DNA of 64,000 nucleotides from an uncultured Thermoplasmata archaeon. Lineage in GTDB: Archaea; Thermoplasmatota; Thermoplasmata; UBA10834. Each line of letters starts with the position of its first letter. Position 1 is the stretch's first letter. The notes beneath the pieces are model-generated. The model saw only the letters and a list, made by a program, of their open reading frames with translations, did not search any database and was not told the DNA's origin. Location: assembly GCA_963719945.1 (NCBI GenBank), contig CAVRDX010000001.1, forward strand, positions 640,001 through 704,000, in the 5' to 3' direction. Shown in pieces: positions 1,026-42,746 of the stretch. The position numbers were made by a program, and so were the translations under genes.

Positions 1026-1562
1026 TCAGGCAGGCTCTTCTTCGGTCACATCGTCGATCTCTTCCTTTGGCTCATCCAACATCCAGAGCTTGTCGCCCAC
1101 GTAATGCAGTGACGATGCGACCTTCCCCTTTTCCTTGCGCAAGATTGTATCTGCGGATACCAACGCTTTACCGATTGCTAGGGGCCGCTTGTTTCTGACG
1201 TCGCGTATCCAAACAAAATCCCCTTCGACGATACCAGGGTCGGCTTCCACGACCCCTGGGCCCATCACATCCGCGCCATTAGCCACGAACCTGACTGCAC
1301 CCATGTCCACCGTGATATACCGCTTCGTAGCCGGATAACCCAACAACCCCCTCACTGTGAGAAACGGCTCCCCCTGCCATACCATCGCCAATATCTTGCC
1401 GTTCACGAACACCGCATCGTATTCCGGGGCTTCCGCCATGTCAACTGTATCCTGGGGCCCAAAGACATCCGTGCCCAGGATATCCTTCAATCGAGCGGAC
1501 AAGGACTCAATCTCCTTCTGTCTCATCCTGTGCCTCTTCCTCAAACGAAGCTCGGTCATCAT
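1026..1562 (-). CDS. PUA-domain RNA-binding protein (pre-PUA/DUF1947 + PUA, MCT-1/Tma20-like)
   Basis: ITVDMGAVRFVANGADVMGPGV...PLAIG...KGK...LHYVGDKLW. Confidence 0.88.
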   Translation of the reverse strand: MMTELRLRKRHRMRQKEIESLSARLKDILGTDVFGPQDTVDMAEAPEYDAVFVNGKILAMVWQGEPFLTVRGLLGYPATKRYITVDMGAVRFVANGADVMGPGVVEADPGIVEGDFVWIRDVRNKRPLAIGKALVSADTILRKEKGKVASSLHYVGDKLWMLDEPKEEIDDVTEEEPA

Positions 1563-3688
1563 TCCGACCTCCTACCGTCATAATCTTCTGAATCACAATC
1601 TCGTGAACGAGCTTCCGCCTCAGCCGATGCGACATCCGCGCTGGCTGTCCTGCCGAGAGCGGCATAGGCTTCGGCTCTGATCCTATACGGTTCTGATTCG
1701 TCCCCGTCGATGCCCGATGCAATCAGAGAAGCATCAATGGCTGAATCAAAATCCTTGAGAACGAGCAATACGCGGGCAAGGGATGTCGCGACCACATAAT
1801 CGGAGGGGACGGCATCCAAAGCTTTCGAATATGATTCCATGGCCATCTGCCATTTCTCTGAGCGTTCTGCGATCTCGCCCAGCAATCTATGAATGGCCGG
1901 GGAAGACTTGCCGTCATGGGACAGCAGCGAGATAGCTTCCTCCGAATTGCCCTCCGCATCGAGAAGCCTTGCGTTCAAGATCATGTGACCCTCATGAGGC
2001 ACCTCCATCGTCTCGATCCGCATCATCACATCTCTAGCGGAAGATAGCCGCCCCCCACGTATGAAGTAGCTGCACAGGGCCATCTGCACGGACACATCGC
2101 TCACGGATCGGATTATGTAATCAACACTAGATGGGAGCACCATCTCATCGAGGAGGCAACGGATGTCGAGCAGTCTTATCAGAACGGATGGATCCCGAAT
2201 CCCCATCAAAACAGCGTCTTCCAGGACGGACAATGCCTCGTGATACATTCCCAGGCGCGTGAGCACCTTGGTACGTGTGATTATCGATGCGATCTCGTTC
2301 TGGGATTCCATCGACCTCATAGGCAGGCTTCTCAGGGCGTTGATATATGCCCTCCTGGCACTTTCCAGGTCTCCCATCCTGGAGAGAAGGTCACCCTTCT
2401 CGGCCCATCCGTCCCCGAAACCTGGATTGACGGACAGGGACTCATCGATAGCAAGGAGGGATTCATCCAGTCGCCCGAGGTCCCGAGCAACCTTGGAGAG
2501 CGCCTTCCATGCTTCATCGTAGTCAGGGTTTATCTCCAATGATGCCGTCATCAGATCTAGGCCTTCCTCAGGGTGTCCGGTCATCGATTTGCATACGCCC
2601 TTTGCATAGAGTGCATAATCGAAATCCGGTCTCAATTCGATGGCTCGGTCATGGAAAGGGATCGCATTCTCCCATAGACCGACCTTCTCGAGCGCATTGC
2701 CGATGTTGTTCCATGCGATCTCATATCCAGGGTCCACCCTTATGGCCTCGACGAACTTTGGTATGGATTCCGAGAATCTTCCCAGGTTGTATAGTGCATT
2801 GCCGAGATTGTTCCATAATACCCTATCATCTGCATCTATCTCAATAGCCCGAGTATAGCACTCGACGGCTTGGGATAGCCGATCGGCACCGTGCAGAGAA
2901 TAGCCTTTGTTATACCAAGCAGGCTTGTATGCAGGATCGATCTCAATCGACTTATCGAAACATTCGAGCGCTCTTGCCAATTGACCAGAGCAGAAGTATG
3001 TGTATCCGAGATTGTTGAACAATTCCTTATCATCGGGTGTGTCCTTCAGGGCCGTCTCGAAAGCCTGGATGGCATTCAAATACTCGCCCTTCTCGTGAAA
3101 TGCGGAACCCATGATTGTCAATGCCTTTGATAACCCTGGATGGATCAGAAGACATCTCTCGCCCAGAGCGATTGCCTCATCGAATAACTGCAAATCGACA
3201 TACAGTTCGGCGGCGGCCAAGAATACATCCACTTTGCCATCTGCGATGGATACGAGTTGTGTCGATGCCTTCTTCGCACGTCGATTGCGACCAAGTCGTA
3301 TGTACGAGCTAGCCAGACCATATATGTTCTGCCATCTGGAGGTGTTTAGGGATGATGCCCGCCCGTAGCATTCGGCTGCATCGAGATACAAGCCCCTCGA
3401 GTAGAGACAATTTCCCAGATTGTGCCAGGCGAGTTCGTAGTCTGGCGCCAGGTGAATGGCATACCTGTAACTCTGAGCTGCATCCTCACAGCGGCCGAGT
3501 GCGTCGAGGGACGCACCTCTATTGTTGTAGACGACCTCTGTCTCAAGACCGGATGATCGCGCCTGCTCGAAGAGCATCAGAGCCTGAGCGTATTCACCCG
3601 CATCGTATGCAGCATTGGCCTGATCGAACGCATAGGAGGGGGAAAGTCGTCTGGTGGACCCCAGCGTCCTCTGTATTTCCTGTTTCAA
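1559..3688 (-). CDS. Tetratricopeptide-repeat protein (709 aa)
   Basis: Many 34-aa TPR units (AWHNLGN, LWNNLGNALY, AWNNIGNALE, AI-IDP). Confidence 0.9.
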   Translation of the reverse strand: MKQEIQRTLGSTRRLSPSYAFDQANAAYDAGEYAQALMLFEQARSSGLETEVVYNNRGASLDALGRCEDAAQSYRYAIHLAPDYELAWHNLGNCLYSRGLYLDAAECYGRASSLNTSRWQNIYGLASSYIRLGRNRRAKKASTQLVSIADGKVDVFLAAAELYVDLQLFDEAIALGERCLLIHPGLSKALTIMGSAFHEKGEYLNAIQAFETALKDTPDDKELFNNLGYTYFCSGQLARALECFDKSIEIDPAYKPAWYNKGYSLHGADRLSQAVECYTRAIEIDADDRVLWNNLGNALYNLGRFSESIPKFVEAIRVDPGYEIAWNNIGNALEKVGLWENAIPFHDRAIELRPDFDYALYAKGVCKSMTGHPEEGLDLMTASLEINPDYDEAWKALSKVARDLGRLDESLLAIDESLSVNPGFGDGWAEKGDLLSRMGDLESARRAYINALRSLPMRSMESQNEIASIITRTKVLTRLGMYHEALSVLEDAVLMGIRDPSVLIRLLDIRCLLDEMVLPSSVDYIIRSVSDVSVQMALCSYFIRGGRLSSARDVMMRIETMEVPHEGHMILNARLLDAEGNSEEAISLLSHDGKSSPAIHRLLGEIAERSEKWQMAMESYSKALDAVPSDYVVATSLARVLLVLKDFDSAIDASLIASGIDGDESEPYRIRAEAYAALGRTASADVASAEAEARSRDCDSEDYDGRRSE

Positions 3689-3808
3689 GCATCCTTCCGA
3701 TTACACACTTGCTAGATAGCCTTTTTGACATCCGGATTAAAAGCTATGCCCACATTTCAACCGGAAAGCATCATCAACATCATGGTTGACGACAGGGGAT
3801 GCCTGATA

Positions 3809-4165
3809 TCATCGCGAATGCTTTTTCATGATTTCAATCAGTTCATCGAGATTGAACGGCTTCTGCAGAAATGCTCGGGCACCCTCGTCAAGCGACTTGG
3901 CCCTTATCGAACCATCCGCGCTGATGAAGATAACGGGAACATCGGGATCTGATTCCAGCAGTATCTTCATGGTCTCGATCCCGTTCTTCATAGGGAGGCG
4001 ATAATCAATGAGAACAAGGTCGGGTGGTTCCATGGAGGACAGACGATCGATGGCTTCGAATCCATCATAGGCCCAGCCCACCACTTCGTATCCATACCTG
4101 GGGAATATCTCGGAATACAATTCGATGAACGAGCTCTCGTCTTCGATAACGAACACCTTCTTCAT
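3809..4165 (-). CDS. Stand-alone response regulator receiver (CheY-like)
   Basis: VIEDE, PDLVLIDYRLP-KNG, FISA, FLQKPF. Confidence 0.92.
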   Translation of the reverse strand: MKKVFVIEDESSFIELYSEIFPRYGYEVVGWAYDGFEAIDRLSSMEPPDLVLIDYRLPMKNGIETMKILLESDPDVPVIFISADGSIRAKSLDEGARAFLQKPFNLDELIEIMKKHSR

Positions 4166-5646
4166 CCTGTCTCACCGCCTCCATCTTCCGATCCTGGTTC
4201 TTGACCCAGTGGTCTGCAAGGGACTAATAACTCCACGCGTGCTCCTTTTGAGAAATCATTCTCGACCCGGTCCGCGATGACGAGATCACCGCCCAATTGA
4301 TTCAGAATCGCTTTGTAGATGGACAGGTCCGACGCCACCCCTCGCGTGTATCTCTTGGAAAAGTCCAGGGGAGCGTTCAGCAATTCCTTTGTGGTGTCCG
4401 GGATTCCTTTGCCGTAATCAGACACCGCGATTCTGCATATGGAATCACTGCCCTTGACACCGCCACCGTACTGCCTATCAATCTCGATATGGACCTGAAC
4501 AGGGTCATCTTTGGAATGGATGACGGCATTCCTGAGGATTCCGTGCAACAGATTGCGCACGTATTCAGTTCCTCGGAGTTCTGACGGCCCCATCCGGGCA
4601 TCAATGGAGATGTGTATGGTCCGCGAGGATTCCTTCTCGACCATCTCAATCAGCTCATTTATCATCCGTTCATGATCGACCCTACTATAGACCAGTTCAT
4701 CGGCCGTGGCCACCTCATCGAGCCATCTGACATTCAGCACGAAAGTTGAAGCCCGCTTCAGCTGCTTGACGACACGACTGGCAGGCAACACTCCGACTCC
4801 AGAGGCACTCGCATCCTCAAACAACATCTCGGCATAAATCAGCGCAGGTGTGAGAAGATTAGCAATATCATGCGCCATGAAATCGAAGTATCTGACTGCC
4901 CGATCATGCTCCGCCCGTAAATCAGCCAATCGCTCACCCACGAGAGTCTCAAGATGGTCACGGTATTGTTCCAACTCGACCAGCAACGATTCTGCCTTTC
5001 TCCGCTCCATGTTCGCCTCATTCATGAGGCGTATGGCGTTGGCATGGGCATCCACCAATTCATTGGCCTGCTTCTGGAGGGTCGTCTCGATCGAGATCTG
5101 TGACTCGATCAACTCAAGCAGTTTAAGCTGGTCCTCCATCACACCCTCGAAAGAAAACAGCACGGACCTGAACATTTCAGCATTCGAGAGCGGAGTGGAA
5201 CTCAAGACGCATATGGTCCCAAAGAGCGAGCCATCAGGCCATTTGATCGGTGCCCCAATATAGGATATCAGACCGGGTTTGACTGCAGGACTGTTCTTCC
5301 ATCGGTCATATTTTCTCGCATCGTCGATATAGTACATCTCGCCCGATTCGAGCACCGCCTCGCAATATACATCGCCAGTGAGCGCCTGACGGTCCCCCAC
5401 ATTAAACGGGTTGCCCTTGGTTGCACTTCTAGCAACGACCTCCACCTCATTCTCGTGCGAACGCATTACCAGCGCCGCCTCTGCACCAAAGACCATAGCC
5501 AGAATGTCCGCGATGCTCTGCCACCTCTGAAGGTATTCCGGCGGAGGAGTTCGGTGGCGTTCGCCATTGATCCCATGCCCTTGCGAGGAAGACCTTTTCG
5601 AACCATCAAGGGTAGCATCCTCGGAAGGGCGGTCGCTCGTATTCAA
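4162..5646 (-). CDS. GAF-domain sensor histidine kinase
   Basis: GAF domain (YCEAV...SYIGAPIKWPDGSLFGTICVL), coiled coil, H-box MAHDIAN, N-box LRNAVIHS, G1 box SDYGKGIP. The G2 box is atypical (RGVASDL). Confidence 0.85.
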   Translation of the reverse strand: MNTSDRPSEDATLDGSKRSSSQGHGINGERHRTPPPEYLQRWQSIADILAMVFGAEAALVMRSHENEVEVVARSATKGNPFNVGDRQALTGDVYCEAVLESGEMYYIDDARKYDRWKNSPAVKPGLISYIGAPIKWPDGSLFGTICVLSSTPLSNAEMFRSVLFSFEGVMEDQLKLLELIESQISIETTLQKQANELVDAHANAIRLMNEANMERRKAESLLVELEQYRDHLETLVGERLADLRAEHDRAVRYFDFMAHDIANLLTPALIYAEMLFEDASASGVGVLPASRVVKQLKRASTFVLNVRWLDEVATADELVYSRVDHERMINELIEMVEKESSRTIHISIDARMGPSELRGTEYVRNLLHGILRNAVIHSKDDPVQVHIEIDRQYGGGVKGSDSICRIAVSDYGKGIPDTTKELLNAPLDFSKRYTRGVASDLSIYKAILNQLGGDLVIADRVENDFSKGARVELLVPCRPLGQEPGSEDGGGETG

Positions 5647-36130: not shown

Positions 36131-37525
36131 CTACGTAAGTCCTCCGACAACAATCTCGTCTATCCTCATATGCGGTCCACCATCGGTAGTCCTCGCAGAT
36201 TGACCATTCTTCCCGCAATATCCAGGATCGGTTATCTTGAAATCGTCAGCCAGGCCAGACACATGTCCCAAGACCTCCATGATAACTCCGGAGAGGGATG
36301 CGTCCCTGTATCTCTGGCCCAACTCACCCTTCACGATCTCATACGCCTCGTCACACTTGAACATGAACTGTCCTTTGGATGGCTCGACGTAGCCATATTG
36401 TGCACCCTTGATAAGCAGGCCGTTTGGAGTGTCCCTGACCAATTCCTCCCGGTCCCAATCGCCACCTGCAATGTATGTATTGCTCATCCGAATAATCGGA
36501 GGGCTGCCATAGCTCTCCGACCTGGCCGATCCGTTCGGAGGTATACCCATCCTGCTACTGGTCTCGAGGTTGTGCAGGAATCCTTTCAGTATACCGTTCT
36601 CAATGAGCACATGCTTCGATGATGGCACTCCTTCCCAGTCATACGAGAAATATCCGAACGAGCCCTCGACTGTAGGATCATCTATCAAGGACACCTCATC
36701 ACTCGCGACCTTCTCCCCGATCCGCCCTTCAAGCACGGATGCACCTTGAAGTATGGCATCAGCCTCGCATGCATGACCAAAGGCTTCGTGTGCGAGGAGA
36801 CCAGTCATCACATTATCGAGTATGCAAGTGAATTTGCCAGCTGGTGTCGGCTTAGAGTCCAGAAGACGCAGCGCCTGTTCCGCAGCGGTCCTTCCGATGG
36901 CAGCCGAATCGTCCTTTCGCATCAGTTCATAACCTCCCACCGAACCGACCGAATGATGCCCTCTCTGGATGACTTCGCCATCCTTCGCCCAGGCAGAACA
37001 CGCACCCAGAGTCCAAGTATCTTCCGTCCGAAGAAGGGTTCCGAACGAGTTCGCAACGATGCGAACACCCTCGAAATCATCATATCTGGCATTTGTGCTC
37101 GTTATCTTGGGGCTGAATGATTTCATCGACTTGTCAAGATCCATGACGTATCCTACTTTTTCCTCGACCGAGATCTCACCAGGTCGCTCGTCGCATCGAT
37201 AGACCTCGGTCGCATGTTCGGGTTTACCGGATTCGATCTCGAACTTTATCTTGGCCCTACTTTCGGCGACCTTTGCCATTCGGACTGCCGATTCAGCAGC
37301 CAAGCGCAGAGATTTCAATGAGAGATCGTTGGTGACGGCAAAACCCCATGCTCCACCCACGAATGCACGTATGCCACATCCCTTGGAAAGACGAGCCGTC
37401 ACGGTCTTCGTCTTTCCGTCCATGACAACGATGTTCGTTCCCAGGGAATCCTCCATTCGCAGGTCTGCGAACTGAGCGCCCATGCTAGTGGCATGCTCGA
37501 TTGTTTTCTGTGCGAAATCCTCCAT
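36131..37525 (-). CDS. tldD: TldD metalloprotease
   Basis: G-GIRAFVGGAWGFA, HEAFGHACEAD, YDWEG, RMSNTY, CGKNGQ, GGPH. Confidence 0.93.
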   Translation of the reverse strand: MEDFAQKTIEHATSMGAQFADLRMEDSLGTNIVVMDGKTKTVTARLSKGCGIRAFVGGAWGFAVTNDLSLKSLRLAAESAVRMAKVAESRAKIKFEIESGKPEHATEVYRCDERPGEISVEEKVGYVMDLDKSMKSFSPKITSTNARYDDFEGVRIVANSFGTLLRTEDTWTLGACSAWAKDGEVIQRGHHSVGSVGGYELMRKDDSAAIGRTAAEQALRLLDSKPTPAGKFTCILDNVMTGLLAHEAFGHACEADAILQGASVLEGRIGEKVASDEVSLIDDPTVEGSFGYFSYDWEGVPSSKHVLIENGILKGFLHNLETSSRMGIPPNGSARSESYGSPPIIRMSNTYIAGGDWDREELVRDTPNGLLIKGAQYGYVEPSKGQFMFKCDEAYEIVKGELGQRYRDASLSGVIMEVLGHVSGLADDFKITDPGYCGKNGQSARTTDGGPHMRIDEIVVGGLT

Positions 37526-37583: not shown

Positions 37584-39137
37584 TCATGCCCTCTGAAACC
37601 CACACGTGTGTTCGACCGTATCCACGAACTCACCATCCAATATCATGCGAGCGACGGATTCGATGTCTCCTGACAGTGACCTGTCCTTGTCCAGCCTGGG
37701 CACCCTGGACCTGAGCAAGGACCGTATCTCCTGTATGGGTGCACTGGAAGGTCCGGAGATGAAATCGAGCGCCTGAGCGGCCGCAATCATCTCTATGGCG
37801 ATCACCCTGCTAACGTTCTCCACGATCGTCCTGGCCTTCCATGCGGCGATCGTCCCCATGCTATTGTAGTCCTCCTGGTTCGCACTGGTAGGGATGGAGC
37901 TCGCAGACGCAGGATGTACCAAGACCTTGTTCTCGGATACAATGGACGCAGCGACATACTGCGGCACCATCATGCCTGAGCTGACACCGCCGTGTTTGGT
38001 TAGGAATGGAGGAAGACCGCTCAGCTTGTGATCGACCAGACGGGCCACCCGTCTCTCAGAATAGCTTCCCAGCTCATGCACTGCAAGACCCAGAAAATCC
38101 ATCGCCAAGGCTAATGGTTGTCCGTGGAAGTTGCCACCAGAGATGACAGATCCGTCCTCAGGGAAGAACAGCGGGTTGTCAGTAGCGGAGTTCAGCTCCA
38201 CGCTTATGACATCGTCAGCATACCAGATTGCTTCGAGACTGGCCCCTATCACCTGTGGGATGCATCTGAGCGTGTACGCGTCCTGGACCTTCGAACAATG
38301 CTTATGGGAAAGCATGATCTCGCTTCCCTGGAGCATCGACACCATGTTCCCCGAGACCCGTACCTGGCCTGGATGAGGTCTCACCTTGGACACGCGAGGG
38401 TCGAACGCCATAGATGTGCCCTTGAGAGCCTCGAGGGACATAGCAGCGGCTATTTGTGAATTGTCTACGAGGATGGATGCATCATTCACGGCGAGCGCGC
38501 CGATGCCGCCCATCGCCTGTGTCCCGTTGATTATGGATATCGCTTCTTTAGGCTCGAGAGAGAGAGGCTCCAATCCTCGCCTTCCAAGAGCATCGATTCC
38601 AGGTTCCGGGCCGTTTCCAGCATCAGCCTCACCCTCACCCACCATGACCAGCCCGAGGTGTGCGAGCATCGTGAGATCCCCGCTCGCTCCTACAGAACCC
38701 TGACGCGGTATCAACGGATGGACCTTGGCGTTGAGCATCTTGGACAGCATCTCTGGCAGGTCAGGCCGTACGCCTGAGAATCCTTTGCACAGAGCATTGG
38801 CCCGAAGCAGCATGATCGCGCGGGAGACCTCGGCCGGATATTTCTCACCCACACCGCAAGCATGGCTTCGGAGAAGGTTGAGCTGGAGCGATTTCAGGTC
38901 CTTCTTGGAGATCCTGGCGTTTACCAGGTCTCCGACTCCCGTATTCACGGCATAAATCGTGGCTCCCTTCTCTACGAGTTTCTCGAGCGCCTTCCTGCTG
39001 GAGATCATCCTGTTCCGGGATTCTTCTCCGATCTGAACAGGCGCGAAACCTCTAGCTACCTTCACGACTTTATCGATGGTAAGACTGTTACCGTCGATGA
39101 CTACAGAGCCAGTGCCCTCATCCGCGTTTTTTGCCAT
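37584..39137 (-). CDS. hutH: Histidine ammonia-lyase
   Basis: YAVNTG, LLRSHACG (HAL-type SH), GSVGASGD (MIO), NGTQ, QDAYTLRC-PQV-G, NSATDNP, SGGNFHG, NQED. Confidence 0.95.
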   Translation of the reverse strand: MAKNADEGTGSVVIDGNSLTIDKVVKVARGFAPVQIGEESRNRMISSRKALEKLVEKGATIYAVNTGVGDLVNARISKKDLKSLQLNLLRSHACGVGEKYPAEVSRAIMLLRANALCKGFSGVRPDLPEMLSKMLNAKVHPLIPRQGSVGASGDLTMLAHLGLVMVGEGEADAGNGPEPGIDALGRRGLEPLSLEPKEAISIINGTQAMGGIGALAVNDASILVDNSQIAAAMSLEALKGTSMAFDPRVSKVRPHPGQVRVSGNMVSMLQGSEIMLSHKHCSKVQDAYTLRCIPQVIGASLEAIWYADDVISVELNSATDNPLFFPEDGSVISGGNFHGQPLALAMDFLGLAVHELGSYSERRVARLVDHKLSGLPPFLTKHGGVSSGMMVPQYVAASIVSENKVLVHPASASSIPTSANQEDYNSMGTIAAWKARTIVENVSRVIAIEMIAAAQALDFISGPSSAPIQEIRSLLRSRVPRLDKDRSLSGDIESVARMILDGEFVDTVEHTCGFQRA

Positions 39138-39198
39138 CTCAAGACCGCCGAGTGATGTGCTGCAGTGATGAGTATTTGCGTACCTTAAACTAACGGCT

Positions 39199-39615
39199 CT
39201 ATTCCTTCTTCTCCAGTACGGGCACGAACTTGTACCCGTAATGGATAACGCCCGCGGACCCTTCCTCACTGAGCTTTCTGAGCACTGTGCGTACCCTGGT
39301 CCCAATCTTGAGGTCGCAGGCGTCACAGTCGATCACCTGACCGGTGATCTTCGGGCCCTCGTCGAGTTCCACCATTGCCACAAGGTACGGCTTCAGCGTG
39401 GCCCTCTCATCGACCCCTTCGTGCACCTCGGAGAATGAGAATATGACACCTTCGCCTTTGAACTTCAACGGTTCGATCTTGCCCACGCTCTTCCTGTGGC
39501 AGATCGGACAGATAGCCCTGGGCGGGAAGTAGTTCTTGCCGCAGCTGTTGCACTTTATCCCAACAAGATTGTACCTGCTGGGATTCTGTCTCCAGAATCT
39601 AGGTGCTGTTGCCAT
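39199..39615 (-). CDS. DUF35 Zn-ribbon/OB-fold protein (thiolase/HMG-CoA synthase scaffold)
   Basis: PRFWR, C--CG--YFPPR-ICP-C, G-I-YGYKF; last gene of the HMGS-thiolase operon. Confidence 0.92.
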   Translation of the reverse strand: MATAPRFWRQNPSRYNLVGIKCNSCGKNYFPPRAICPICHRKSVGKIEPLKFKGEGVIFSFSEVHEGVDERATLKPYLVAMVELDEGPKITGQVIDCDACDLKIGTRVRTVLRKLSEEGSAGVIHYGYKFVPVLEKKE

Positions 39616-39617
39616 TC

Positions 39618-40790
39618 TCAAGACCTCCTGAATATGTGTACGATGACTGTCGCGCCAGTCCCTCCGACGTTATGAGTCAGACCGACCGACGCATCCTTGA
39701 CCTGTCGTTTCCCAGCTACGCCTCTAAGCTGGGTCACTACCTCGACGGCCTGCGCAAGACCCGTTGCGCCAATCGGATCGCCCCTGGCCTTCAAACCTCC
39801 CGAGGTGTTGATCGCGATCTCTCCGTCGAGTGCGGTCCTACCATCCTCGGTCGCCTTTCCACCCTCACCCTTCTTGAAGAATCCGAGATCCTCTATCGCG
39901 AGTATCTCGCTTATCGTGAAGTTGTCATGGACCTCTGCCACGTGGACATCCTTCTGCTCAAGGCCGGCTCTCTTGAACGCCTTCTTCGCGGCTATCCTTG
40001 TGGCATCCATGGTGAGTATGTCGCGCCTGTGATGGAGTGCCAGAGTGTCACTCGCCTGCCCGGAACCTATGATCTCGACGGGGGTCTCCACATATTTCTT
40101 CGCATCGTCCAACGGACATAGCACGACCGCTGCTGCGCCATCTGAGCTGGGTGAGCAGTCGAATACGCGCAACGGGTCCGCTACGAGCGGAGAATTGAGG
40201 ACGACATCCCTGTTGATCTCCTTCTGGAACTGCGCTTTCGGATTCAGCGAGCCGTTCTTGTGGTTCTTCACCGCGACATCCGCGAGCTGCTCCCTGGTCG
40301 TTCCGTACTCGTGCATGTGCCTTCTCGCTATCAGGGCGTGAAGGCTCGAGAAAGTGGCACCCAACTCCGTCTCCCATTCTTGGTCCGATGCTGAGGATTG
40401 GATCATCGAGGACGCGATGTCGCTGACATCCATCATCTTCTCGGCACCACCGACTACGACTATATCATGAAGGCCAGACGCGACCGCCATGAAGCCTTGT
40501 CTGAGGGCGAGCCCACCGGATGCTCCAGCAGCCTCCACCCTGGTTGCAGGGATATGGTCCCTTGCCAGACCCGCATAGTCTGCGATCAACGCGCCTATAT
40601 GCTCCTGCTCGATGAATCTGCCAGCAGACATGTTTCCGACGAACACCGCATCTATCATCTCCGCGGATATCTTCGCATCCTCGACTGCGGCCAGACCGGC
40701 ACGTATACCTATATCCCTAAAGGAAGCGTCCCACAGTTCTCCGAACTTCGTGTCCCCTACACCGATGACTGCGACCCGTCTCATGTTCAT
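39618..40790 (-). CDS. Archaeal (SCP2-type) thiolase-fold protein with substituted catalytic motifs
   Basis: [21 protein letters not shown] (expected ACAS), DCSP-SDGAAA, EVHDNF (expected HDCF), [13 protein letters not shown] (expected GHP), HNVGG. Confidence 0.9.
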
Positions 40791-41839
40791 CCCCTCCCAA
40801 GGGTTATCTTGCCTCTGAATTTTGCATAGGTGGCATAATCGAGATACTTTGGATTGGCGAGCTGCTCCTTCACCGTAGGTGCACGATCCCGTTTGTAGTT
40901 CGAAATCTCGTCTGTAACCGTTATATCGAAACCATCCGAGCCAGCACCTGAACCGTATGCTATGGCGAAGATGCGGTCTCCCGGTTTAGCCTCATCCAGG
41001 ATCGCAGCCAATCCCAACGGTACCGCTCCGGAGTAGGTGTTCCCGATATGGGGGACGATCAGGCCGAGCTTGCCCTGCGCCTCGTTGAACCCCAGCTGCT
41101 TGGCAACCCTGGTAGGGAACTTGCCGTTCGGCTGATGGAACACGGCATGAGCATAATCGCTCGGGGTCGTACCAGCCTTCTTCATCAGACCCTTCGCACA
41201 GCTCATTATGTGTTTGAAGTAGGCAGGCTCCCCTGTGAACCTCCCGCCATGGCTCGGGTACATCTGACCCTCCCGTCTCCAGAAATCTGGGGTATCGGTC
41301 GTGTATGAATATGTATGGTCTATCCTCGCGATGATCTTCTCAGCCCCGATCATATGGGCCGCACCGCCGGCAGATGCCGAGTATTCGAGCGCGTCGCCAG
41401 GGGCACCCTGTGAGGTATCCGCACCGATGGCCACACCATACTTCATCATGCCTGAGCCGACAAGACCCATGCATGTCTGAATGGCGGCCGTGCCCGCCTT
41501 GCACGCGAACTCAAAGTCCGCGACCGTCAGCTCTGGTGACGCTTCGATTGCTTCAGCGACTATCGTTCCTGAGGGTTTCACAGCGTATGGATGCGATTCC
41601 GAGCCGACATAGATGGCTCCTATATCCTTCGGGTCAACATCCACGCGCTTCATCATGTTCCGGGCGGCCTCCACGGAGATCGTGATAGTGTCCTCGTCCG
41701 GCCCAGGGACCGATTTGCTGAATATCATCAGGCCCTTTCCCATCGCAGTTCCATCTATGCCCCACACTTTGCCGATCTCTTCCGGCTTGATCCTATAGCG
41801 TGGGACGTACGCTCCATAACTCACGATTCCTACTTCCAT
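40787..41839 (-). CDS. mvaS: Archaeal HMG-CoA synthase
   Basis: [20 protein letters not shown] (catalytic Cys intact), [32 protein letters not shown]. Confidence 0.95.
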
Positions 41840-41855: not shown

Positions 41856-42539
41856 TCATCCTAGCGATTGGAGTATCTCGACCAGTTCACTTGCTGGCAG
41901 TTCCGTCCTCACGAGAGGAATGCCCTCCAGCTCTGCAAGCCTCACAGCCAGTTCGTCAACCTGCTCCGGCTTCTGATAAACTACCAGCGCAGGCTTGAGC
42001 GGATGGGCTCTGATGGCTATCATCGGTGAACGGCCGAATCTGACGCCAGTGAACACCAGCGCCCTCTGACTGCTCCAGCCATAGATCTTGAGGTAATCGA
42101 ACGAGCTGAGAGTCGTTATGGCTCTTATGCTGTCGATTATAGTGAACCCGTGGATGTGTTTGTCCAGAGATATGGCCGGCGTGAGGTTCTCACCCTTCAG
42201 CTTATCGACCAGGTCCGATGCGAGGACCTCCACGGAGAACTCCTTTATCGCGATTATCGATTCAGTCTTCGCAGCGAGCGAGTACTGCTTGAGGATAGAT
42301 CCGCCCGTCTTCTCGTCGATCTCAAGGAAGGCGTCGACGATCTTCCTGATGGTCGCGATTCCTGGCGATTTCCTCCTTCCGGCCTCGTAATCGCTTATGA
42401 CTGATGGCGAAATCCCAAGGTGCTTGGAGAGGTCCTGTTGAGAAATATTGAACTGTTCGCGCCACTTGCGTATCGTTCTGCCAGGCTCCTCAGAAAGGCA
42501 GATTTCTCCTGCGACTTTCTCCCTCACTTGGTCCCGCAT
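41856..42539 (-). CDS. XRE-HTH transcriptional regulator (COG1709-like), first gene of the mevalonate operon
   Basis: [50 protein letters not shown]. Confidence 0.88.
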
Positions 42540-42746
42540 GCTCCATGGAGCTGAATGTCGGTACTTATAGTTTGTCGTACCTACTTTACGGCAATAGACG
42601 AACATTCTGAGAAGAGAGTGACCCACTTTCGAAACTGGATGCATGCATGGGCCGTAGATGATACACGTGAGATGTGCCCATGAATATTGACAATTCGATA
42701 TCTATGGTACGGATTAGGGGACATAAATCGAGTTTCGCATCATAGA

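Follow-up and report, generated by a model that had tools for sequence, protein, structure and literature searches.

A thiolase homologue devoid of catalytic residues in the HMG-CoA synthase operon of Thermoplasmata archaea

The operon for entry into the mevalonate pathway in this Thermoplasmata genome codes for an intact HMG-CoA synthase (HMGS), a DUF35 protein and a thiolase homologue, P0001, in which all three catalytic residues have been replaced. Judged by its sequence, P0001 is orthologous to the thiolase that forms part of the archaeal thiolase/HMGS/DUF35 complex, and is unable to form the acetyl-Cys intermediate. The comparisons reported here further indicate that the thiolase half is catalytically dead in most of the Thermoplasmatota sampled and likewise in some Heimdallarchaeia. 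The preliminary description of this DNA had treated the catalytic loss as the peculiarity of one gene; it is actually the usual state across most of the phylum. We consider it likely that P0001 is a pseudo-enzyme, required by HMGS and DUF35 as a structural and CoA-binding partner, and that a classical thiolase supplies the acetoacetyl-CoA. The following features lie in the window, that is, the whole stretch of 64,000 nucleotides that was analysed:

39199 to 39621, minus strand: DUF35 protein with a zinc ribbon and an OB fold, third subunit of the complex (domain match, conserved Cys)
39618 to 40790, minus strand: P0001, SCP2-type thiolase homologue without the catalytic residues (Pfam, NCBIfam, 6ESQ alignment, dN/dS)
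39777 to 39779, minus strand: GAT codon of Asp338, opposite the His of GHP (the G-H motif) in 6ESQ
39921 to 39923, minus strand: AAC codon of Asn290, opposite the acid/base Cys of HDCF in 6ESQ; the motif of P0001 is HDNF
40524 to 40526, minus strand: GGA codon of Gly89, opposite the nucleophilic Cys of EAACASG in 6ESQ; the Cys of the CxS motif is absent
40787 to 41839, minus strand: P0122, archaeal HMGS with an intact Glu/Cys/His/Asn tetrad (TIGR00748, 578.6 bits)
41856 to 42644, minus strand: XRE-type HTH protein of 262 aa, directly upstream and co-directional (HTH_3)

P0001 is a protein of 390 aa, translated without interruption from window positions 39618-40790 on the minus strand, and its Thiolase_N and Thiolase_C_1 domains (Pfam) make up a full-length thiolase fold. 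Its residues 3-387 align (HMMER, E 2.6e-111) with PDB 6ESQ/6ET9, the thiolase/HMGS/DUF35 channelling complex of Methanothermococcus thermolithotrophicus. With the NCBIfam models, P0001 exceeds the cut-off of PRK06064, the archaeal thiolase subfamily (573.9 bits; cut-off 420), and misses that of NF053570, the equivalog of the Methanothermococcus acetoacetyl-CoA thiolase (586.5; cut-off 600). The 6ESQ alignment and the translation agree with the preliminary description, which had read Cys/Cys/His as replaced by Gly/Asn/Asp at the codons given above, and had placed a full-length gene inside a regulator-HMGS-thiolase-DUF35 operon, whose gene order is as it described. Within the HDxF motif, His288, Asp289 and Phe291 are still present. 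As P0001 fails three defining catalytic features, the label of acetoacetyl-CoA thiolase should not be applied to it.

The replacements of Cys by Gly and of Cys by Asn take two base changes apiece, and the Gly/Asn/Asp triplet recurs in 120 of the 120 nearest homologues of P0001 (the best 120 drawn from a collection of 5.8 billion proteins; 81-98% identity, Thermoplasmata metagenome-assembled genomes). The same residues are found in all genomes examined from the family and order of the source genome. Because of the two-base changes and the identical triplet in all 120 homologues, chance and sequencing error are ruled out; the earlier judgement that an error was unlikely thus holds, none of these relatives having Cys/Cys/His. 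That the gene is a pseudogene in decay, or that errors of assembly or sequencing produced it, is suggested by the missing catalytic residues and by nothing more; against this speak the full-length open frame, the translationally coupled genes, a dN/dS of 0.094, and identical residues in 120 independent database sequences and many assemblies. We give this reading practically no weight. The dN/dS comparison, which the preliminary description had proposed, was made among 25 members of the source genome's family, with the pairs limited to a dS between 0.05 and 1.5; the thiolase-like gene has a median pairwise value of 0.094, HMGS one of 0.103 and DUF35 one of 0.169. P0001 is under purifying selection as strong as that acting on its catalytic neighbour HMGS.

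The other components of the operon have all the features expected of them. The HMGS presents its four motifs, namely GSESHPY with the Glu, FACKAGT with the Cys (earlier noted as intact, as is found here), FHQPNG with the His and GNTYSG with the Asn, and all four zinc-ribbon Cys of the DUF35 protein are invariant. The DUF35 start is a TTG, with an ATG two codons further downstream. Overlaps of 4 nt mark both the HMGS/thiolase junction (ATGA) and the thiolase/DUF35 junction (TTGA), and 16 nt separate the stop of the HTH gene from the start of HMGS. The XRE-type HTH protein is a possible regulator of the operon; its C-terminal part gave no match to known families. Directly downstream of DUF35 is a co-directional histidine/aromatic ammonia-lyase gene (window 37584-39326, minus strand), and beyond this a PmbA/TldD-family gene (window 36131-37525, minus strand), also co-directional with the operon. 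A complex prediction for HMGS, DUF35 and P0001, for which the input was a 45-row alignment per chain, scored 0.91, a value to be read beside the likewise high 0.83 of a control in which HMGS was replaced. An HMG-CoA reductase gene is found in the source genome, and therefore the mevalonate pathway is in use.

The loss of constraint in the Cys-less proteins is confined to a few positions. Compared with 66 wider Cys/Cys/His relatives, 33 of the 40 sites that are at least 90% conserved in these relatives also stay conserved in the Cys-less group, and conservation is lost at 89, 290, 291, 338 and 343 only. Set against 22 orthologues that are HMGS-linked and bear the Cys, 60 Cys-less proteins retain 91 of 129 conserved sites, the HD of HDxF and the GG-L-K loop among them. 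Conservation drops most at 89, 213, 128, 132 and 338; one site alone, 213, takes on a new conserved identity among the Cys-less proteins (Ser to Ala), and no new conserved Cys was found in them. A relocated nucleophile was rejected as there is no Cys column specific to the Cys-less group. A further candidate for a replacement nucleophile, the Cys two residues downstream in a motif variant GACG (accompanied by HDNF and GQP), is found in families f21, f23, f25 and f27 and is missing from P0001. The overall pattern appears to be that of catalysis given up with fold and contacts retained, and is not as expected for a newly installed catalytic apparatus.

The class set combines relatives with 120 evenly sampled genomes, each at least 85% complete; the tallies for the class sample include one unpublished genome (G104), on which no claim is based. 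The nucleophilic Cys is missing in 116 of the 120 HMGS-linked thiolases examined in the class. The order HMGS-thiolase-DUF35 is seen in 120 of the 121 class loci read with their flanks, the exception (in G090) being a Cys-bearing paralogue, and the four HMGS motifs are intact, and near-universally identical, in every class genome read. Altogether the sample spans 44 families, including a probable Methanomassiliicoccus genome; by exact look-up, Cys-less representatives include those of Thermoplasma acidophilum (UniProt Q9HI86, annotated as 'probable 3-ketoacyl-CoA thiolase'), T. volcanium (WP_010916387) and Methanomethylophilus alvi Mx1201 (AGI85303). The Cys is kept in only three families of the class, among them Aciduliprofundum (CAH).

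Mapping residues 89, 290 and 338 across Thermoplasmatota, as had been suggested in the preliminary description, reveals Cys loss to be widespread and the replacements to be lineage-specific. There are several distinct triplets. Four families, those of the source genome and its sister among them, have GND, and about ten have GNQ or GNR; Methanomethylophilaceae have GDY, Thermoplasmatales TSN, TSD or TSF, and further families GSD, SAH, NAN and DAR/GSQ. Taken across the Cys-less lineages, the residues are G/D/S/T/E/N at 89, N/S/A/D/G/V/C at 290 and Q/D/R/N/Y/H/F at 338, with Asn290 common to about a dozen families and G/N/D invariant in families f1, f2, f26 and f29. This triplet (G/N/Q in the sister families) is more conserved across families of about 65-70% identity than pure drift predicts; hence, residues at these three positions may have some role. 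Separately, the Cys-less thiolases of family f10 (L036, L079, L082) read VYDSST, with a Tyr at the first HDxF position that recalls the YD[HC][FY] of the Ltp2 and Sal aldolases; aldolase-type chemistry may be conceivable in that family.

A phylum-level sample adds 21 further Cys-less families together with several Cys-bearing ones. When the nearest 150 representatives of 50%-identity clusters are considered, many likewise lack the Cys. Three of the Cys-less representatives lie in HMGS-thiolase-DUF35 operons, at least one of them from Heimdallarchaeaceae. These operons (L135 2956-5571, L136 2961-5580 and L137 2941-5569, from metagenomic archaea including Heimdallarchaeaceae) carry Asn or Glu in place of the nucleophile, together with intact Cys, His and Asn motifs of HMGS; the HMGS Glu motif is matched in one of the three. 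On the gene tree the Cys state has to change six times or more, and within the class the Cys was lost separately at least twice. HMGS-thiolase fusions, to which open frames of 590-750 aa had seemed to point in several genomes, were rejected, the HMGS always being in another frame. Some genomes depart from the common arrangement: one of the Aciduliprofundum family (G086, 99% complete) had no match to either the HMGS-linked or the classical thiolase query; among the 11 genomes of family f33 there are classical thiolases and no HMGS-linked thiolase at E <= 1e-80; and the best SCP2-type match of family f48, with Cys/Cys/His, has no adjoining HMGS at any of the three loci read. The thiolase partner may have been lost entirely from some lineages.

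A search of the source genome for a second intact thiolase, another check that had been proposed earlier, recovered two, which belong to the following loci:

G000:C4:144778-145950: P0328, classical AtoB/PhaA-type thiolase with CxS, NEAF, GHP and CxG all intact
G000:C1:515535-519701, outside the window: second trio, of the SCP2 thiolase P0124, the HMGS-like P0123 and the DUF35 protein P0125

P0124 has Cys/Cys/His and is 48% identical to P0001, and in P0123 the catalytic Glu and Cys have both become Thr. A lysine 2,3-aminomutase-like radical SAM gene adjoins this trio on the opposite strand. The presence of reciprocal trios, one with a live HMGS and a dead thiolase and the other with a live thiolase and a dead HMGS-like protein, each with a DUF35 protein of its own, raises the prospect of mixed complexes, in which P0001 with live P0124, and HMGS P0122 with dead P0123, would rebuild one channelling complex. 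We find this highly improbable: P0124 sits in a separate and distant clade of the gene tree, for which reason we also rejected it as a recent duplicate sharing the function of P0001; either trio is its own tightly coupled operon; and many Cys-less lineages, e.g. Methanomethylophilaceae and others with a single SCP2-type match, yielded no second trio although the dead subunit is kept in them too, so that a pairing with P0124 is not the general reason for its retention.

The classical thiolase, on the other hand, is associated with Cys loss across the sample, and the association runs one way. It is present in 117 of the 121 class-sample genomes; of the four without it, three belong to Cys-bearing lineages and the fourth is G086. 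The phylum-level sample agrees with this. Among the Cys-less genomes it is present in 133 of 134, all 133 of them at least 85% complete, the exception being a genome of family f7 (G032) that is 74% complete and in which no classical thiolase was seen. With such an enzyme here and in nearly all Cys-less genomes, the amino-acid fermentation earlier put forward as the source of acetoacetyl-CoA is unneeded. Conversely, the Cys is kept in 17 of the 17 genomes that lack the classical thiolase and whose HMGS-linked thiolase was read (eight families). Both states occur within family f59: one genome with the classical thiolase has GCH, and three without it have Cys/Cys/His. Six families have a Cys-bearing HMGS-linked thiolase together with the classical one; the latter thus appears to permit Cys loss and not to force it. 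These raw counts represent few independent events, since relatives share traits and phylogenetically independent pairs on supported branches supply only four usable contrasts (two agree, none oppose, two show no difference), which have no statistical power. The classical thiolase gene of family f20 and the operon point away from each other across about 190 bp (in L198, classical thiolase at 4299-5459 on the plus strand and operon at 1504-4105 on the minus strand; L199 is alike), and this divergent arrangement suggests shared regulation. In one f16 genome the classical thiolase gene is about 2 kb downstream of the operon.

These observations can be joined in a single proposal. In the Methanothermococcus complex, according to Liao et al. 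(2026, PMC12960953, citing Vogeli 2018), HMGS shows no activity on its own, the thiolase is insoluble on its own, and a shared CoA site lies at the interface. If the same dependence applies here, HMGS could not dispense with its partners: it would need P0001 and DUF35 to assemble, to stay soluble and active, and to form the shared CoA-binding site. Once a classical thiolase had made the chemistry of the partner redundant, the catalytic residues of P0001 would have decayed, whereas the rest of the protein would have been held under selection by its structural and CoA-binding role. The acetoacetyl-CoA would most likely come from the classical thiolase P0328, and would reach the active site of HMGS from solution via the retained CoA site, without internal channelling. 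The loss of the residues, the selection, the synteny, the other thiolases and the one-way association with the classical thiolase are direct observations. The physical assembly we deduce from synteny and published work on the Methanothermococcus complex, and the role of the CoA site and the identity of the thiolase feeding HMGS are inferred as well.

It is also conceivable, if with a limited chance, that the remodelled pocket is not inert, and either supports Cys-independent chemistry, or captures acetoacetyl-CoA or docks the classical thiolase in a manner that preserves channelling to HMGS. An active pocket, if true, would make this a functionally new mevalonate entry complex in most Thermoplasmatota and some Asgard archaea. 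In the non-catalytic form of this idea, which we think rather unlikely, the dead pocket would hand bound acetoacetyl-CoA to HMGS, dock the classical thiolase, or allosterically sense acyl-CoA/CoA. Such a role would fit the retention of 91 of 129 conserved sites (HD of HDxF and GG-L-K loop among them), the polar residues conserved at the former catalytic positions in large clades, and the classical thiolase adjoining the operon in f20 or lying about 2 kb off in the f16 genome. The classical thiolase of the source genome itself, however, lies among unrelated housekeeping genes.

In the catalytic form, which strikes us as quite improbable, a pocket made of His288, Asn290 and Asp338 would act on a CoA thioester, the candidates being acid/base Claisen or aldol chemistry directly, decarboxylation or hydrolysis. 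A precedent comes from Ltp2 and Sal, steroid side-chain aldolases that are bound to the DUF35 domain of ChsH2/Shy (PDB 6OK1; PMC12329534): as retro-aldolases, they illustrate that Cys-less SCP2-thiolase homologues which bind DUF35 can be enzymes, and P0001 would resemble them in having an SCP2-thiolase fold without the nucleophilic Cys and a DUF35 partner. The persistence of His288 and Asp289, the invariance of G/N/D in four families and the recurrence of Asn290 in about a dozen also point in this direction. Against it, the residues at 89, 290 and 338 vary widely by lineage, a single site gains a new conserved identity, and there is no new conserved nucleophile. Further, unlike Ltp2 and Sal with their catalytic Tyr in YD[HC][FY] (PMC12329534), P0001 has HDNF, with His288 at the Tyr position; we rejected it as an Ltp2/Sal-type aldolase for want of that Tyr, and its similarity to an Ltp2-type aldolase is remote (E 1.5e-32, versus 2.6e-111 for the archaeal thiolase). 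The Cys-less forms, moreover, are confined to genomes with another thiolase (in 133 of 134, a classical one), and therefore do not replace thiolase function. The preliminary description had offered a scaffold or new chemistry as alternatives: selection, the confined loss of constraint, the lineage-specific replacements and the other thiolases favour the scaffold, whereas the new chemistry is disfavoured by the lack of both a new conserved catalytic set and an Ltp2-type Tyr.

With the pseudo-enzyme as the preferred reading, several consequences may be drawn. The thiolase/HMGS/DUF35 complex has been presented as the archaeal answer to a thiolase equilibrium that is unfavourable where lipid synthesis begins. 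The Cys-less lineages offer a natural experiment on whether HMGS relies on its partners for structure or for the supply of substrate, and on whether it can do without channelling. The annotation 'acetyl-CoA C-acetyltransferase' is probably wrong for the Cys-less genes, and pathway reconstructions should name the classical thiolase instead. The lineages also appear to document a repeated conversion of an enzyme to a pseudo-enzyme, mirroring the recently described bacterial complexes with a dead HMGS. The proposal can be tested directly with recombinant proteins of cultured species.

Among known systems, the closest is the Methanothermococcus complex, which reportedly makes acetoacetyl-CoA and channels it to HMGS. 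The source operon resembles it in having the three orthologous genes in the same order, a P0001 that aligns over its full length, and an HMGS and a DUF35 protein with all hallmark motifs. It differs in that P0001 is without all three catalytic residues of the Methanothermococcus thiolase, so that the making and channelling of acetoacetyl-CoA cannot operate.

Thiolase-fold proteins that have lost the active-site Cys are known from other settings: in type II polyketide synthases the chain-length factor (KS-beta) is such a partner, and trypanosomatids and mycobacteria have SCP2-thiolase-like proteins of unclear activity that have lost it. These, unlike P0001, belong to other subfamilies and have other partners; to our knowledge, none is part of a mevalonate entry complex. 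One SCP2-thiolase-like protein, TbSLP, is mentioned in PMC12329534. Searches of the full-text literature turned up no account of archaeal HMGS-linked thiolases that lack the Cys.

The bacterial HMGS/ACAT/DUF35 complexes PhlACB, MucABC and PfACAT/HMGS-DUF35 have an inactive HMGS unit (Liao et al., 2026, PMC12960953). These combinations of a dead HMGS and a live thiolase are stable, and activity requires the assembly of all three proteins (Liao et al., 2026, PMC12960953). The source operon shares with them the three-protein architecture in which one of the two thiolase-fold subunits is dead yet retained, and the second locus of the source genome, at G000:C1:515535-519701, resembles this bacterial type, with a dead HMGS and a live ACAT. 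The operon in the window, in contrast, with its dead thiolase and live HMGS, is their mirror image; and whereas PhlACB, MucABC and PfACAT serve secondary or unknown metabolism, it serves an essential lipid pathway.
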